From Candidatus Scatovivens sp. (GTDB lineage Bacteria > Bacillota > Clostridia > TANB77 > CAG-508), in the NCBI GenBank assembly GCA_045646345.1, contig JAZRKN010000014.1:1-32000 (forward strand): a stretch of 32,000 nt of DNA. Reading direction: 5' to 3'. Of the stretch, positions 2,392 through 12,914 are shown one piece after another. Each line of letters starts with the position of its first letter. The first letter of the stretch is position 1. The notes beneath the pieces are model-generated. The model worked only from the letters and a program-made list of their open reading frames with translations. It made no database searches and was not told where the DNA came from. Position numbers and translations under genes: made by a program.

Positions 2392-2421
2392 TTTTGTATT
2401 ATTAGAATATAGAAGAGAAAT

Positions 2422-2453
2422 AAAGATCATTTTTATGATCTTTATTTTTTTTT
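2422..2453 (+). terminator. Rho-independent terminator of gyrB
   Basis: AAAGATCAT / ATGATCTTT 9-bp stem with a 4-nt loop, followed by a run of 9 T. Confidence 0.8.
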
Positions 2454-2460
2454 GTAAAAT

Positions 2461-2496
2461 GATAAAGCCATAAGGATTTTCCTTATGGCTCTTATC
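2461..2496. repeat. Long stable hairpin / inverted repeat without a T-tract
   Basis: GATAAAGCCATAAGG-ATTTT-CCTTATGGCTCTTATC forms about 15 bp of stem with one bulge. It lies right after the gyrB terminator and no U-run follows on either strand. Confidence 0.5.
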
Positions 2497-3222
2497 ATCT
2501 ATAAAACTTATATTAACTTTCAGCTCAAACTAATATAACTAGTAGTTTAACCTAATGTATATTACTATACAAGTAAGCTATATACTACTTATATTAATCA
2601 GTTACTAGACTATTAATCTACTCTAAATAGCTATATTCATCCGCGTGGGACTAAAAATAACCACTTTTGAATAAAAGAATAATCATAACTTCGAATATAT
2701 AATATACTTTTCAAATCCTAAATATTTTAGCCACTTAGTTTGATATATTTTCTGGTTTTAGAAAATAATTATTTATAATGCTTAGAACTATCAAGCACAC
2801 AATATATTCTTTGTGTCCAACATAAAATACTAAAGTATTAACTTCAATATTTTATATTTTTACTCGATCCTTAATTACTAGTATTTAAAATACCAATAAT
2901 AAAGCTCTAAGTTAGGCTAATATAAATTTTATAATAGTATTATGTTCAAAAGAAAAAAATATATACAAAAAATAAAATTAGTAAAAAGTTCCATAAAAAA
3001 CATTTTTTTATAAGCCTTAATAAATCAAATAAAAATGAATTTTATTGATATAAAAATAACAAAAAAATTAATTATTGCTTACGGAATTAAAGACTTTGAA
3101 AAAATAGAAAATACATATAAAAAATAATTAATAATAAAAGAAAATTTCAAAAAATATATGACTTAGAAAAAATGGAAAATTGTATAATGTAAGTGAATAA
3201 GTATTAAGTAAAATATAATTAA

Positions 3223-3257
3223 ACAAAAAAAAGAGACCCCAACTGTGGGGCCAGGGG
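3223..3257 (-). terminator. Putative Rho-independent terminator of the 243-aa HTH gene
   Basis: On the minus strand, CCCCA-CAGT-TGGGG is followed by TCTCTTTTTTTTG. It lies about 60 nt past the stop at 3318. Confidence 0.55.
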
Positions 3258-3265
3258 ATTGTGCT

Positions 3266-3278
3266 ATTGGATTATTGC
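3266..3278. repeat. Left copy of a perfect 13-bp inverted repeat flanking the HTH gene
   Basis: ATTGGATTATTGC at 3266-3278. Its exact reverse complement GCAATAATCCAAT is at 4088-4100. Confidence 0.8.
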
Positions 3279-3317
3279 GAAATTAAAAAATCTAAAAACT
3301 TATTGTTCTAGACAAAA

Positions 3318-4049
3318 TTAATAAATAGTGTTAAAACCGCAAAGTTGCAAATCAGCCAAATCCTTAATTTCTTTAGAATTGGTTAATAAGCGAACTTTAA
3401 ATCCTTTTGAGTAAAGGTCACAACATACAGAAACAACACCGATTGAACGTTTTTTTCTGATTTCGAATGTAGGATCTTCAAAAAGGACTTCTTCTTTTAA
3501 ATTGACAAGATTAATTCTTTGAGTACTATAGATTACTGAAAGTAAATCTCTAGCCTCTTTTGAGATGTTAGATAATTTTTCGAGTTCTTTAATGCAAAAA
3601 GATGGCATATACATATCCAAACTTTCATTAAAGAATCCGCTTACACCTACGTTAAGAAGATAACCTGTTTCAACGACAAGGACTTCACTGATTTCTTCTG
3701 TCGAAATTTCGAATTCCTCGAATCCATCTTCTCTTTTTGTTTCATTATTTTCAACGATAGATTCAAAATCTTCGAAAGATTCAGCAGCTTTTTTTCTTGC
3801 TTTTTCTGTTTGGCGAAGCTTGTCTAAAAAATTGCGGTTGTAAGCATTACTACCTTCTGCATAAGAATTTTTAACAATCTCACGAATATAACCAAAAGTA
3901 TAGCCAAAATGGTCGGCAATTTCTTTTCTGGTTGCACCGTGTTTTGCCATTTGTTTGGCAATTTTAGCGATGGTAGATTCTGCATATCTTCGTGTTTTTT
4001 TATTGCACATTTCGTTTGTTACATTTGTTTCTTTTTCAGCTCTGCTCAT
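3318..4049 (-). CDS. Hypothetical protein with an N-terminal helix-turn-helix and a C-terminal domain of unknown function (possibly PIN-like)
   Basis: 243 aa. GAGGAA RBS lies upstream of the ATG, with its own consensus promoter. The HTH-like segment is GATRKEIADHFGYTFGYIREIV, followed by an acidic linker. The C-terminal beta-alpha pattern is VLVVETGYLL...MPSFCIKELEKL...VRLLTNSKEIKDLA. I recognise no family with certainty. Confidence 0.75.
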   Translation of the reverse strand: MSRAEKETNVTNEMCNKKTRRYAESTIAKIAKQMAKHGATRKEIADHFGYTFGYIREIVKNSYAEGSNAYNRNFLDKLRQTEKARKKAAESFEDFESIVENNETKREDGFEEFEISTEEISEVLVVETGYLLNVGVSGFFNESLDMYMPSFCIKELEKLSNISKEARDLLSVIYSTQRINLVNLKEEVLFEDPTFEIRKKRSIGVVSVCCDLYSKGFKVRLLTNSKEIKDLADLQLCGFNTIY

Positions 4050-4087
4050 ATTATTTCGTTCCTCATACTTTCTTTTCGCTCAAATGT

Positions 4088-4100
4088 GCAATAATCCAAT
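4088..4100. repeat. Right copy of the 13-bp inverted repeat, within the 5' UTR of the HTH gene
   Basis: GCAATAATCCAAT is the exact reverse complement of 3266-3278. It lies between the minus-strand -10 box (4124-4129) and the start codon (4049). Confidence 0.8.
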
Positions 4101-4123
4101 TTTCAATTTACAATCTATTAAAA

Positions 4124-4152
4124 ATTATAACATAAAAAATGGTAAAAAGCAA
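4124..4152 (-). promoter_or_regulatory. Sigma-A promoter of the HTH gene
   Basis: The minus strand reads TTGCTT, 17 nt, TATAAT, with TGt directly upstream of the -10 (extended -10). Confidence 0.65.
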
Positions 4153-4181
4153 CCGATTATGTAAAATAGCACTTAAAGGTA

Positions 4182-4210
4182 TTGATATAACAACACTTTT
4201 GTGTTATAAT
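4182..4210 (+). promoter_or_regulatory. Sigma-A promoter of the divergent small ORF
   Basis: TTGATA (4182-4187), 17 nt, TATAAT (4205-4210), preceded by TGt. It stands back to back with the minus-strand promoter, 30 bp apart. Confidence 0.65.
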
Positions 4211-4259
4211 TTTTTGGATACTTATTGTTTTTTTATACCTACGATTGGAGGAGAATGTG

Positions 4260-4499
4260 ATGAGCAGAACAAGAAGTTTATTACGGTTACTTGTTCTAAG
4301 AGTTTGGGTCTCAGAGGACTCATGGGCAGAACTCGAAAATTATTTTTGCATGAGAAAAGAGAATATTATAAAACGATTAGCTGAAATGCTAAGTGATGAT
4401 AATGACAGTTCTCGCAAAATTAATGTATTCTGCAAACAAGTAGAAAAAAATGAGAAAATAAGAAATTTAAATGCTCAACGGTTGGAAAGACCACATTAG
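4260..4499 (+). CDS. Hypothetical small protein (79 aa)
   Basis: GGAGGAG RBS (4247-4253) lies 6 nt before the ATG at 4260. The TTG at 4245 in the ORF track overlaps the RBS, so it is unlikely to be the start. The unit is bracketed by a consensus promoter and a strong terminator. The N-terminus SRTRSLLRLLVLRVWV is Arg-rich and amphipathic. No recognisable family, and an RNA function cannot be excluded. Confidence 0.55.
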   Translation: MSRTRSLLRLLVLRVWVSEDSWAELENYFCMRKENIIKRLAEMLSDDNDSSRKINVFCKQVEKNEKIRNLNAQRLERPH

Positions 4500-4525
4500 A
4501 AAGCGCTTTCAGCGCTTTCTTTTTT
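4499..4525 (+). terminator. Rho-independent terminator of the small ORF
   Basis: GAAAGCGC-TTTCA-GCGCTTTC followed by TTTTTT. The stem begins inside the stop codon. Confidence 0.8.
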
Positions 4526-4593
4526 GTTTATTTTAAATAAAAAAAGTCACAAAAAAATCACTATTTTTTAGTGTGTTTTTTTGCTGATTTTCC

Positions 4594-4622
4594 TTGATTT
4601 TTTGAGTGTTTTTTTATATAAT
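4594..4622 (+). promoter_or_regulatory. Putative sigma-A promoter of gyrA
   Basis: TTGATT (4594-4599), 17 nt, TATAAT (4617-4622). AAGAGGAG RBS precedes the ATG at 4659. Confidence 0.55.
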
Positions 4623-4658
4623 GCAAGTGGAAAATAATAAAGGAAAAGAGGAGAATAA

Positions 4659-9927: not shown

Positions 9928-9984
9928 ATCAAAAACCCCTTTTCAAACTTTTTAAATTTATCTTCTTTTGTACAGTTTGAACAG

Positions 9985-10013
9985 ATTATATCATTTTAAA
10001 TTTGTAATTACAA
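9985..10013 (-). promoter_or_regulatory. Sigma-A promoter of the dnaD-like/dnaI-like operon
   Basis: The minus strand reads TTGTAA, 17 nt, TATAAT, with TGa directly upstream of the -10. Confidence 0.55.
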
Positions 10014-10163
10014 TAATAAATTTAAATCAATTTTTTAAAAGGATATAAACGATGTTTTACCTTATGATATTACAACATTTTTTTGTGATTATCTATACAA
10101 TTTTAAAAAATTATGATAAAATAATTTAGTCTTAAAAATAAAAGATTTAAAGGAGGACAAAAA

Positions 10164-10346
10164 ATGATAGATAAAGATATGAAAATTGGAGAATTATTAG
10201 CTCAATTTCCAGAGAAAGCTCAAGTTTTAGGAGCAGCTGGAATGGGATGTCTAGGATGCCCTGCAGCACAAGCTGAAACAATCGAAGAAGCTTGCCAAGT
10301 ACATGGAATAGATGTAGAAGAATTATTAGCAGAATTAAATAAATAA
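10164..10346 (+). CDS. DUF1858 / hybrid-cluster-protein-associated redox disulfide domain protein
   Basis: 60 aa. It shows the typical MKIGELLAQFPE...GMGCLGCPAAQAETIEEA pattern and an AAGGAGG RBS. Confidence 0.8.
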   Translation: MIDKDMKIGELLAQFPEKAQVLGAAGMGCLGCPAAQAETIEEACQVHGIDVEELLAELNK

Positions 10347-10350
10347 AAAT

Positions 10351-10378
10351 AAAAGGGCAGAAGCCCTTTTATTTTTTT
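10351..10378 (+). terminator. Rho-independent terminator
   Basis: AAAAGGGC-AGAA-GCCCTTTT followed by ATTTTTTT. Confidence 0.8.
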
Positions 10379-10395
10379 CTGTATTTGTCACAAAT

Positions 10396-10424
10396 TTGAA
10401 AAAAAATAAAAAAAGTGATATAAT
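10396..10424 (+). promoter_or_regulatory. Sigma-A promoter of the SleB-like lipoprotein gene
   Basis: TTGAAA (10396-10401), 17 nt, TATAAT (10419-10424). Confidence 0.5.
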
Positions 10425-10489
10425 TATAGAATAGGGACTTTGTAACTATTAACAAGCGCATATAATAATTTATAAGAGGGAACAACTTT

Positions 10490-11098
10490 ATGAGAAGAGA
10501 ACTGAAAGTATTATTAACCCTGGCAGTAGCATTAATGATGGTTTGCATTCTTGGATGCGGAGATGGTATGACCGCAAATGCGGAAAGTGACACGCCGAGC
10601 GATATCGTTGCAGTGATTACTCCTCCGACACAAGAAACAGAAGAACAAGTACAAGGAAATAATATTCAGTGGTGGCAAGGTGAATGGAAGACAGAATATA
10701 TTATAAATAGCGCCGGAAACGAAGTTAAGTTACGCTATTTAGATTCCATTATTTGGCCTGAATCTGAAGAAGAATGCTTGGCAAGATTTTTAAGCTGTGA
10801 AGGTGGCAACTACGAGGAAAAAACTCGTGTTGCTCAGCTAGTTGTGTGGAGAAAGTATGATTCTCATTTTGGCGACACAATCCAAGAGGTACTCAAAACC
10901 AATAGCTATTTTGCAATTTATCCTGAATTCTGGAATGAAAAGGCCGTTGTAACAGAGGAAGATTACGAAATTGCCAAAGAAGCGCTGAATAGCACAGAAA
11001 AACCAGAGTATGTGCATTATATCTTCAAAGAATTTTATGAAGATTTTGGACCAAAAGAAGATGTCTACATGACAGAAAATTTTGTGTTCTTTAACTGA
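10490..11098 (+). CDS. Lipoprotein with a SleB/CwlJ-type cell-wall hydrolase (Hydrolase_2) domain
   Basis: 202 aa. The signal peptide has a lipobox (VCILGC). The Hydrolase_2-like core is ECLARFLSCEGGNYEEKTRVAQLVVWRKYDSHFGDTIQEVLKTNSYFA, followed by EEDYEIAKEAL. G+C is clearly above its surroundings (30/60 counted in 10561-10620). Confidence 0.7.
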   Translation: MRRELKVLLTLAVALMMVCILGCGDGMTANAESDTPSDIVAVITPPTQETEEQVQGNNIQWWQGEWKTEYIINSAGNEVKLRYLDSIIWPESEEECLARFLSCEGGNYEEKTRVAQLVVWRKYDSHFGDTIQEVLKTNSYFAIYPEFWNEKAVVTEEDYEIAKEALNSTEKPEYVHYIFKEFYEDFGPKEDVYMTENFVFFN

Positions 11099-11106
11099 TA
11101 TCCTAG

Positions 11107-11147
11107 AAGCTGAAAAAAGTCCCGTTTCAGCTTCGGGATTTTTATTT
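11107..11147 (+). terminator. Rho-independent terminator of the lipoprotein gene
   Basis: GAAGCTGAAA / TTTCAGCTTC stem, with an alternative CCCG/CGGG pairing, followed by ATTTTTATTT. Confidence 0.6.
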
Positions 11148-11154
11148 ATAAATT

Positions 11155-11188
11155 TAAAAATTAAAAAGCGGTGCTTCTAGCACCGCTT
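11155..11188 (-). terminator. Rho-independent terminator of the DUF2142-like membrane gene
   Basis: On the minus strand, AAGCGGTGC-TAGAA-GCACCGCTT is followed by TTTAATTTTT. It lies right after the stop at 11197. Confidence 0.7.
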
Positions 11189-11196
11189 AATGTTTT

Positions 11197-12669
11197 TTAA
11201 AATAAAAATCTAGTACATATTTTAAGTAATATTCCAAAATTAATTAAAATAACTAAACTCCATAAATCATTTTTATTAACTTTTATAGATTTTTTTGAAT
11301 TTATAAAAATTGAAAGTACAGCTATGGGGATAAAATATCTTCCTTGAACTCCAATTACAAGTTTATTTCCAATTCCTTCATTTTCATTGTTTGCAGTCCA
11401 TTGAACATATAAAGATGTATGTATTATAAATATAACTAAAAATATAATTGTAAAAATTAAAAATTTAGACTTTTTTGATAATTTTATTTCACTTTCTTCA
11501 AAGAATAAACTTGCAATTAATGCAATAAAGTAAATAAAAGAGATAGTATTATCTACAGATATAGTATTGTGACATATCGTTGTGTTACCAGTTGTAAATT
11601 GATAAATATAGTATCCAAAGTTCTTTGTAATTGTTCTAATAAATGTTAATAAATAATCAAATGGATGATTGAATATATATTCTTTTTGATTTTCTATTAA
11701 AGGATAATATTCTAATAAATCTGTACCTACAAAGCTTAAATTAAAAATACATGTAAATACTAATATTAGGGTTAATATAAAACAATAAATATTTTTTTGT
11801 GTTATGTTTTTAAAGCATTCTTTTGGTAGTAAAAACATTATTAAGAATATTAAAGCGTAAACAATTTTTGCAAAACAAGATAGAATACCAAGTAATGTTA
11901 TAAGTAAGAATTCACTAAGTTTTATAGGTCTTTTTTCTTCATATAATTTATACCAAATTGCTATAAACAAAAACGCAGTAGCGTTTGTAAGAAGATCTCC
12001 TGTGAATGTTGTTACTATTGTGAGAGATATTGGCATTAAACAAAGAAATGCAATAAAGTCTTTTCTCTTTGGTATTAATTTAATTGTATACATAGAAACT
12101 AAAAGCCAAATAATAAAACTAAATATTCTTCCAGCAATAACTATCCAATAAATATCTGCGTTTAATAATGTTTTAAAAACAAACATAGGTAAAAGATATG
12201 TCAGATATGAAATTGGCGAATATAATTTGGCACCAATGTAATCTTTGGTATACAAGGTTTGGGATTCATCTATTTTTACATTTTTTAATTCTAAAGTGTC
12301 TTGTAAACTACGAACAGAATTTGCATCAATTATTGCTTTTGGAACAGCATCTTCTAAATTACTCTTTAATTCTTCTGGAACAGATATATCACTAAAAAAA
12401 GAATAAACTTTATAAAAATGAGCTCCTTCATCAATTCCATGCAGAATTGGTATTAGAAAAATTAGTATAATTCCTAATAATCCTGCAACTATTCCAAATT
12501 TTTTCTCAGTAGATAATTTTTTATAAGATATTATAAAAATATTAATTCCAAAAATTAAAATAGTAAGTAAGAGCATAAATAAATTGTTTAAGATTAAATC
12601 TGTTTCAAAAGAAAAAAATAAGTATACAAAAAAGTATAATATTATAAGAAATTTATATTCTTTTCTCAT
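11197..12669 (-). CDS. Polytopic membrane protein, DUF2142-like (possible glycan/arabinosyl-type transferase)
   Basis: 490 aa with at least 10 hydrophobic segments. The N-terminal loop motif HGIDEGAHFYKVY matches the DE..H motif I associate with DUF2142. Confidence 0.65.
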   Translation of the reverse strand: MRKEYKFLIILYFFVYLFFSFETDLILNNLFMLLLTILIFGINIFIISYKKLSTEKKFGIVAGLLGIILIFLIPILHGIDEGAHFYKVYSFFSDISVPEELKSNLEDAVPKAIIDANSVRSLQDTLELKNVKIDESQTLYTKDYIGAKLYSPISYLTYLLPMFVFKTLLNADIYWIVIAGRIFSFIIWLLVSMYTIKLIPKRKDFIAFLCLMPISLTIVTTFTGDLLTNATAFLFIAIWYKLYEEKRPIKLSEFLLITLLGILSCFAKIVYALIFLIMFLLPKECFKNITQKNIYCFILTLILVFTCIFNLSFVGTDLLEYYPLIENQKEYIFNHPFDYLLTFIRTITKNFGYYIYQFTTGNTTICHNTISVDNTISFIYFIALIASLFFEESEIKLSKKSKFLIFTIIFLVIFIIHTSLYVQWTANNENEGIGNKLVIGVQGRYFIPIAVLSIFINSKKSIKVNKNDLWSLVILINFGILLKICTRFLF

Positions 12670-12832
12670 TTTTTTAATCCTTTCGATTCAATAAAGTGTT
12701 AAAAAGAATATATCATTGATATGAGAAAAATTCAATATAACTTTAAAAGATTTTAGATAATGAAATTGATAATAAAAGAGTGTTAAATTTTGATTAAAAA
12801 TAATGACTTTTAAAATAAAATAATATATAATG

Positions 12833-12861
12833 TTGACAGCAAATTTTAAAGAATATATAAT
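12833..12861 (+). promoter_or_regulatory. Sigma-A promoter of pcrA
   Basis: TTGACA (12833-12838), 17 nt, TATAAT (12856-12861). AAGGAG RBS precedes the ATG at 12915. Confidence 0.6.
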
Positions 12862-12914
12862 ACAAACAAAAGTTTTATAATTACTTTGAAAATAGTTACA
12901 ATAAGGAGAATTTC

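Follow-up and report, generated by a model that had tools for sequence, protein, structure and literature searches.

Organization of the gyrB-gyrA spacer

The region between the DNA gyrase genes gyrB and gyrA was investigated in a stretch of 32,000 nucleotides (hereafter the window) from Candidatus Scatovivens sp. (Bacillota; Clostridia; order TANB77, family CAG-508), corresponding to positions 1 to 32,000 of the forward strand of contig JAZRKN010000014.1 of assembly GCA_045646345.1. Comparison with related genomes indicates that this spacer is very probably a composite of an inherited gene for a structured RNA, the relic of an operon, and an acquired module encoding two proteins, ORF243 and ORF79, named after the lengths of their open reading frames (ORFs) in amino acids (Table 1).

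The end of gyrB, the start of gyrA, the two ORFs and the promoters and terminators were found where an initial annotation, made from the sequence alone, had placed them, and its back-to-back promoters approximately 30 bp apart correspond to a measured distance of 29 bp between the -35 boxes. That annotation had also read the spacer as a single insert of 2.27 kb between two normally contiguous genes, and neither part of this reading holds for the lineage: roughly 520 bp are ancestral RNA gene and promoter, 190 bp are relic and 1.4 kb were acquired, while the spacers of relatives range from 0.5 to more than 8 kb and contain a conserved RNA and a four-gene operon. The tract described as AT-rich and non-coding (2392-3317) is indeed free of sizeable ORFs, the longest having at most 32 amino acids, with a GC content as low as 15-24%, but it holds the RNA gene and a pseudogene relic.

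Table 1. Features of the window from gyrB to gyrA. HTH, helix-turn-helix; aa, amino acids.
Feature	Position	Strand	Basis or details
gyrB, 642 aa	463-2391	+	ORF list; 81-98% identical to gyrB of relatives
gyrB intrinsic terminator	2412-2455	+	A/T-rich 19-bp hairpin (2412-2453) and T run; -18.5 kcal/mol, z -6.05
Structured RNA gene, ~476 nt	2457-2932	-	convergent with gyrB; covariation and folding
RNA gene promoter (inferred from consensus)	2939-2968	-	-35 TTGTAT 2968-2963, 18-nt spacer, -10 CATAAT 2944-2939
p240 pseudogene relic	2987-3172	+	residues 153-211 of 246; three stops; tblastn and blastn
Acquired segment, ~1.4 kb, specific to the species lineage	~3173-4576		blastn boundaries
ORF243 terminator	3235-3252	-	7-bp stem, 5 G-C pairs, T run; conserved in near relatives
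ORF243, 243 aa	3318-4049	-	HTH ~24-62, long helix 69-102, disordered acidic linker, PIN-like domain 121-243
Divergent control region of ORF243/ORF79	4050-4259		two promoters and an 18-nt inverted repeat
ORF79, 79 aa	4260-4499	+	ATG start taken after GGAGGAG ribosome-binding site
ORF79 terminator	4498-4520	+	10-bp stem, 5 G-C pairs, T run
gyrA promoter	4594-4622	+	TTGATT-17-TATAAT; promoter scan; within block conserved in all relatives
gyrA, 811 aa	4659-7094	+	ORF list; first 150 residues 85-100% identical among genus relatives

Gene order between gyrB and gyrA in related genomes

In the genus and the family, gyrB and gyrA are almost never adjacent. The usual order is gyrB, the structured RNA on the minus strand, an optional two-component system, an operon of VirB4N, VirB4, ParA-like and p240 genes, and gyrA; p240 is the name used here for the helical protein of ~240 amino acids encoded last in this operon. 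The four genes lie on the plus strand immediately 5' of gyrA in most relatives, and Pfam assigned the proteins of ~200 and ~590 amino acids to a split VirB4/TraG-type ATPase and the protein of ~370 amino acids to the ParA/MinD-type ATPases; a response regulator and a histidine kinase are encoded 5' of this set in some relatives. Spacer lengths within the genus are 523 bp (one genome) and 4.3-6.5 kb (eight genomes); in the others the spacer exceeds 8 kb or gyrB and gyrA are unlinked. Other genera of the family share the order gyrB, conserved non-coding block, VirB4N and VirB4, and thus gyrB and gyrA do not appear to have been ancestrally adjacent in this lineage.

Among the genus relatives represented by loci L054, L055 and L094-L100, several keep the RNA gene and the VirB4 operon together, away from gyrB, and in one genus relative gyrA is preceded by mnmE-mnmG-rsmG-parA-parB. 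The block detached from gyrB and the relocated gyrA point to possible rearrangements around the replication origin.

A structured RNA gene conserved in most genomes of the family

Regarding the tract downstream of gyrB, alignment of 24 copies from the genus revealed invariant blocks between variable hairpins, and a terminal terminator hairpin that covaries. Folding of the minus strand of these copies with RNAalifold yielded 128 pairs in 14 helices, of which 59 pairs have compensatory changes, and includes a helix of 17 bp between the 5' end of the RNA (2932-2916) and its 3' region. On the consensus structure 97.6% of the cells are paired, and the covariation score of 0.301 compares with 0.159 for shuffled alignments, none of 500 reaching the observed value, and with 0.06-0.07 when partners were slid. 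G-U pairs make up 22% of the paired cells and reading of the plus strand lowers pairing to 75%; the RNA is therefore the minus strand, and a plus-strand RNA or an element acting as DNA was rejected on the same two figures. Similarly, the window copy alone folds into the same architecture (minimum free energy -147.4 kcal/mol, z -11.3).

The promoter hexamers of the RNA gene are conserved in the 24 aligned copies (consensus TTGAAT ... CATAAT/TATAAT), and the start of the RNA is inferred to lie near 2932. Its 3' end is a hairpin at 2492-2464 followed by a U run, which the terminator scan had returned as a minus-strand terminator-like hairpin with no ORF to terminate. Conserved helices with compensatory changes beyond those of the controls are thus accompanied by a conserved promoter and terminator, as is characteristic of structured RNAs.

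None of the 4227 families of Rfam 15 matched this RNA, the best scores being 15-21 bits against cut-offs of 42-115. Type A ribonuclease (RNase) P RNA, transfer-messenger RNA (tmRNA), 6S RNA, signal recognition particle (SRP) RNA and OLE RNA are all located elsewhere in the genome, OLE RNA (Rfam RF01071) at C1:79413-80011 with 252 bits. A divergent RNase P RNA, tmRNA, 6S or SRP RNA, or a shortened OLE RNA was accordingly rejected as the identity of this RNA, all five being present elsewhere at high scores. A shortened 'variant 1' of OLE RNA has been reported for TANB77 (PMC11332333). The genome carries two large structured RNAs, OLE and the one adjacent to gyrB.

The RNA block was detected by blastn as a single copy in 54 of 74 genus genomes. 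A covariance model built on the 3' domain of the RNA (R1) found one copy per genome in 52 of the 74 genus genomes and in 42 of 52 genomes of other genera of the family, spanning 12 of 14 such genera, while none was found in 98 genomes from four other families of the order. The comparison thus shows what is evidently an inherited minus-strand RNA gene of ~480 nt, with its own predicted promoter and terminator, that is single-copy in most genomes of the family. The RNA is missing from several near-complete genomes and is hence dispensable.

Loss of the VirB4/ParA-like operon and acquisition of the two-gene module

Alignment with related genomes, which the initial annotation had proposed as a means of finding the limits of its insert, did delimit one, of smaller extent. 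The window is conserved in genus relatives at 2455-2977 (69-80% identity, blastn) and homology returns at 4577-4593, approximately 70-80 bp before the start of gyrA, so that, with the p240 relic set apart, only ~3173-4576 is lineage-specific. The gyrA promoter is part of the sequence that all relatives share from ~4577 onward, and is ancestral to the genus. At the ends of the acquired segment no terminal repeats were detected beyond A/T-rich noise.

The p240 relic matches the p240 of the closest relative that bears the operon (tblastn E 2e-7; 74% identity across 158 bp by blastn, E 3e-18) and is broken by three in-frame stops, and no orthologue of the operon was found elsewhere in the genome, the ParA-like protein and p240 having no match. 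Together these results show that the VirB4N/VirB4/ParA-like/p240 operon was in all likelihood once present and later deleted, leaving a stump of p240. The two-component system of close relatives has evidently also been lost from the spacer of the window, and the boundaries show that the acquired module of 1.4 kb was substituted for roughly 35 codons at the 3' end of p240, 5' of the ancestral gyrA promoter. The RNA gene has been kept with its promoter and terminator intact despite the loss of the operon next to it.

A near relative (86-93% nucleotide identity) carries an ORF241/ORF79 pair in six contigs from independent assemblies, and the pair is directly 5' of gyrA in all five contigs that extend to gyrA. 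A further near-relative metagenome contig (L065) has gyrB, the RNA, the two-component system (response regulator and histidine kinase), the p240 relic and the pair, an arrangement that represents an intermediate state.

The only VirB4-like match elsewhere in the genome is a distant VirB4N/VirB4 paralogue pair with 38% and 26% identity, located ~135 kb downstream on the same contig (C14:137264-140258; the 26%-identical VirB4 paralogue at C14:138570), which may belong to an integrated conjugative element. Regarding the region downstream of gyrA, the closest operon-bearing relative (L135, 5344-8622) has four minus-strand genes after a dnaD-like gene, one of which encodes a fragment of 208 amino acids of a type IV coupling protein (Pfam TraG-D_C / TrwB_AAD_bind). 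All four lack a match in the genome studied here, and the window instead contains genes for a DUF1858 mini-protein, a protein of 202 amino acids and a membrane protein of 490 amino acids (9928-12866). Secretion-type genes thus seem to have been lost on both sides of gyrA.

Predicted HTH and PIN-like domains of ORF243

ORF243 has no match in 36 genomes of the same genus and 24 of the same order, in agreement with the initial annotation of a two-gene unit without a recombinase: the unit is lineage-specific, ORF243 being absent from these 60 relatives. Members of the ORF243 family occur in approximately 5 of 300 genomes of the family CAG-508, at other loci, and are rare in general, with 9 clusters among 5.8 billion proteins in a word-seeded search, 137 cluster representatives among 1.84 billion in a profile search, and a single metagenome-assembled genome in a pattern-based scan of species-representative genomes.

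Scans of ORF243 and ORF79 against Pfam, PHROGs, NCBIfam and PADLOC gave only weak HTH matches, those of the ORF243 HTH in Pfam being to HTH_28/HTH_23, and neither Pfam nor NCBIfam includes a model for the family of HTH plus PIN-like proteins. The AlphaFold2 model of ORF243 (mean predicted local distance difference test, pLDDT, of 81) begins with an HTH of three helices, followed by a long helix, an acidic linker that is disordered, and a domain of the beta-alpha-beta type (residues 121-243). The top Foldseek matches in the PDB are PIN domains, alone or in larger proteins, with E-values from 1e-3, and include Rrp44, AF0591, an archaeal RuvB-like helicase, SMG6/EST1A, SSO1118 and VapC20; TM-scores reach ~0.6 relative to small PIN targets. 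Similarly, weak matches to Pfam PIN_4 were detected in 8 of 66 members of the family, the best with an E-value of 1.8e-5.

Among the 66 members, position 127 is E or D in all, E155, which lies in the conserved helix motif 'IPxFCxxEL', is kept in 60 and R201 in 65, while T223, S225 and Q235 are kept in 55-59. R201 would take the position of an Asp of PIN_4 proteins. After strand 4, where an acidic residue is expected, ORF243 has T223, N224 and S225, with Ser in 55 of the 66. In PIN-like domains three acidic positions are nearly invariant and at least four are needed for activity, including an Asp or Glu after strand 4 (PMC5499597). Given this requirement and the missing acidic residue, the nuclease competence of ORF243 is doubtful, although E187 (46/66) and E227 (42/66) could substitute. 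With its conserved Arg, Thr, Ser and Gln, the PIN-like domain resembles a module for binding nucleic acids or ligands more than it does a canonical metal-dependent RNase.

Matches of the ORF243 HTH motif extend to proteins with 4-12 tandem copies of it (profile-search matches P0090-P0146) and to PDB 8vd6, which is entitled 'CAP repeat'; there are thus repeat proteins that consist of this HTH unit.

ORF79 and recurrence of the pair

ORF79 gave chance-level matches only in the 60 relatives (3 of 60, E 0.002-0.006, inside unrelated long ORFs). Alignment of the ORF79 family with the ORF243 family by hhalign gave a probability of 94.6% and an E-value of 6.6e-8 on residues 25-86 of ORF243, and the AlphaFold2 model of ORF79 (pLDDT 89.5) consists of four helices in the same order as the HTH and long helix of ORF243. 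ORF79 is therefore a free-standing paralogue of this part of ORF243. Both genes are under purifying selection and appear to be functional, the ratio of nonsynonymous to synonymous substitution rates (dN/dS) being 0.15-0.18 for ORF243 against near relatives and 0.3-0.4 for ORF79 against the near relative.

In at least six other lineages an ORF79-like gene is found divergently oriented 200-300 bp 5' of an ORF243 homologue with 29-43% identity (loci L104/L105, L106, L107/L108, L109, L141 and L145). These recurring pairs adjoin unrelated housekeeping genes, namely a transglycosylase gene, trpS and dnaJ-dnaK, or ROK and TetR genes, and lone ORF243 homologues adjoin the suf operon and alaS, Sua5, or ftsY. 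The occurrence of homologues without a partner in several lineages means that the pair is apparently not obligatory. Neither ORF was matched by tblastn in 50,697 phage and 72,556 plasmid records, and the module region has no recombinase or transposase ORF, no terminal repeats and no similarity to known elements. The pair thus appears to spread or persist sporadically, with no recognisable vehicle.

The divergent control region

The promoter of ORF79 returned by the promoter scan, TTGATA-17-TATAAT (4182-4210; -35 box 4182-4187, -10 box 4205-4210), has an upstream TG and 11 of 12 consensus positions, and that of ORF243, as read from the sequence, consists of TTGCTT (4152-4147), a 17-nt spacer and TGTTATAAT (-10 box 4129-4124). 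An inverted repeat of 18 nt (4120-4137 / 4197-4214, 94% complementary) covers both extended -10 boxes, and the control region as a whole is 91% conserved in near relatives. In L065 (6430-6638) a deletion of 29 bp takes out both the -35 and the -10 box of the ORF79 promoter, and both ORFs are intact. With respect to an arrangement of the CI/Cro type, divergent promoters and predicted HTH folds are present, and the sole operator candidate is the 18-nt repeat.

Regarding the ORF243 mRNA, its 5' and 3' untranslated regions contain segments of 13 nt that are perfectly complementary (3266-3278 / 4088-4100) and do not vary among five near-relative contigs; the sequence TTATTGC also recurs at 4000-4006. 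A stem around the start codon of ORF243 (4000-4012 / 4082-4094) was rejected, a difference in the near relative being uncompensated.

Possible functions of the pair

The composite spacer together with a module of the switch type is, taken as a whole, the best explanation and a rather probable one. For the module itself, a self-contained and autoregulated transcriptional switch made of two proteins is proposed as a possibility that falls somewhat short of an even chance. Both HTH proteins would bind the shared 18-nt inverted repeat and thereby regulate each other and themselves; binding to a shared site is to be expected because the paralogous HTH proteins come from promoters bearing the repeat. 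The short protein might compete with the long one, or pair with it through the shared long helix, and the PIN-like domain could be an RNA- or ligand-binding domain or a weak nuclease effector.

Several observations weigh against such a switch or against the domain assignment on which it draws. The 18-nt repeat largely consists of the two extended -10 elements and may not be an operator, and it is invariant among near relatives, leaving no covariation signal to read. Foldseek matches to the PIN fold have modest E-values (1e-3 to 1e-2), and ORF243 itself has no Pfam PIN match at E-values up to 1, lying below the PIN_4 gathering score. Homologues of ORF243 also occur without an ORF79-like neighbour at L138-L140, L102/L103, L070, L143 and L144.

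The initial annotation had offered a toxin-antitoxin-like module as one option, and the pair might be such a module or an abortive-infection system, in which a PIN-like RNase toxin would be restrained by its own HTH region or by ORF79. The PIN-like fold of ORF243 fits this option, as do the acidic residue at position 127 in all 66 members, E155 in 60 of them, and the small, self-regulated, sporadic nature of a unit that has no recombinase. The gene organisation and the expected obligate pairing do not, since the two genes diverge, each with a promoter and a terminator of its own, instead of forming a bicistronic operon, and the long protein is found without the short one in several genomes. 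Ser occupies in 55 of the 66 members the position after strand 4 where Asp is expected, ORF243 has no PADLOC match and those of ORF79 are at chance level (Cas11f E 0.007, PDC-M41A E 0.019), and the phage and plasmid collections contained no match, which together make a toxin-antitoxin function unlikely.

Less likely still, the pair could be a functionless remnant of a mobile element or prophage that has decayed, originally an immunity region of the CI/Cro kind, as the relic considered in the initial annotation would be. The divergent arrangement with HTH genes resembles an immunity region, a distant homologue (L070) adjoins KilA-N and HTH_26 genes, and the 29-bp deletion has removed the ORF79 promoter in one near relative. 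However, six independent assemblies contain intact copies of both ORFs, whose dN/dS values (0.17 and 0.3-0.4) speak for purifying selection, the pair is conserved down to 29% identity in core-gene contexts without other phage genes, and no recombinase, terminal repeats or match among the phage and plasmid records were found.

A module functionally tied to gyrase, for example as a regulator of gyrA or modulator of supercoiling, had also been suggested and is highly improbable, since its only support is that the pair sits directly 5' of gyrA here and in the near relative, whereas ORF79 is set off from gyrA by a strong terminator, gyrA has retained its ancestral promoter unchanged, and homologues, paired or lone, adjoin trpS/dnaJ-dnaK, ROK/TetR, a transglycosylase gene, Sua5 or ftsY and never gyrase genes.

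Returning to the two-protein switch, it is tentatively suggested, with slightly less than even confidence in the statement as a whole, that the RNA represents a new large structured class with a function independent of the secretion-ATPase operon and that the pair is an undescribed regulatory switch. The independence of the RNA is proposed because it has been kept intact though the operon and the secretion-type genes downstream of gyrA are gone.

Implications

What is new here is the composite spacer itself, in which the operon of one species has disappeared, its RNA persists, and a pair of an HTH plus PIN-like protein and an HTH-only protein has been added. It corrects an easy misreading in the annotation of an uncultured gut lineage, where conserved content has long stood between gyrB and gyrA. 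The window also represents a natural experiment, in that the VirB4/ParA-like operon and the two-component system can be lost while the RNA is kept, which would make the function of the RNA separable from that of the operon. Large structured RNAs with no assigned function are uncommon, and any new class might prove to be a ribozyme or a scaffold for ribonucleoproteins. The recurrent pairing of the ORF243 family with a paralogous mini-protein provides a compact putative regulatory pair that is accessible to experiment.

Comparison with known systems

In common with the large RNAs OLE, ROOL, GOLLD and raiA, the RNA adjacent to gyrB is several hundred nt long, with many covarying helices and its own predicted promoter and terminator, and it is single-copy and conserved across one Bacillota-type gut family. 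Unlike them, it is extremely A+U-rich, was found in one family only in the genomes searched and has no Rfam match.

Regarding the operon found in relatives, Patescibacteria are reported to have chromosomal, relaxase-free gene sets for a type IV secretion system close to the origin (PMC12102498). The operon of relatives appears similar in consisting of a split VirB4-type ATPase and partners, vertically inherited beside origin genes, and the window differs in having lost it.

The pair resembles VapBC type II toxin-antitoxin systems in combining a PIN-like alpha/beta fold with a DNA-binding function and in being small, probably self-regulated and patchily distributed. In contrast to VapBC, the PIN-like and HTH parts of ORF243 are fused in one chain, the divergently transcribed partner ORF79 is paralogous to the HTH part, ORF243 has a non-canonical acidic set, and the long protein occurs alone in several genomes.

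The PIN_4 (PF13638) branch of the PIN domain-like superfamily includes SMG5/SMG6, Swt1 and PhoH2 (PMC5499597). The ORF243 family is similar to this branch in the weak matches of 8 of its 66 members, in the fold matches to Rrp44, SMG6 and archaeal PIN domains, and in E155 of the 'IPxFCxxEL' motif. It differs from it in the N-terminal HTH fusion, in Ser225 and Arg201 where acidic residues are expected, and in that the window protein lies below every Pfam cut-off.

CI and Cro of phage lambda, which are expressed from divergent promoters, and SinR and SinI of B. subtilis are regulator/antagonist pairs built from paralogous modules. As in these systems, a long regulator and a short neighbour occur together here, the back-to-back promoters share elements, and the short protein is a second version of one module of its longer counterpart. 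The pair described here, known from sequence, differs in having no prophage around it and in that the shared module is a DNA-binding domain with a long helix and not an oligomerisation domain alone.

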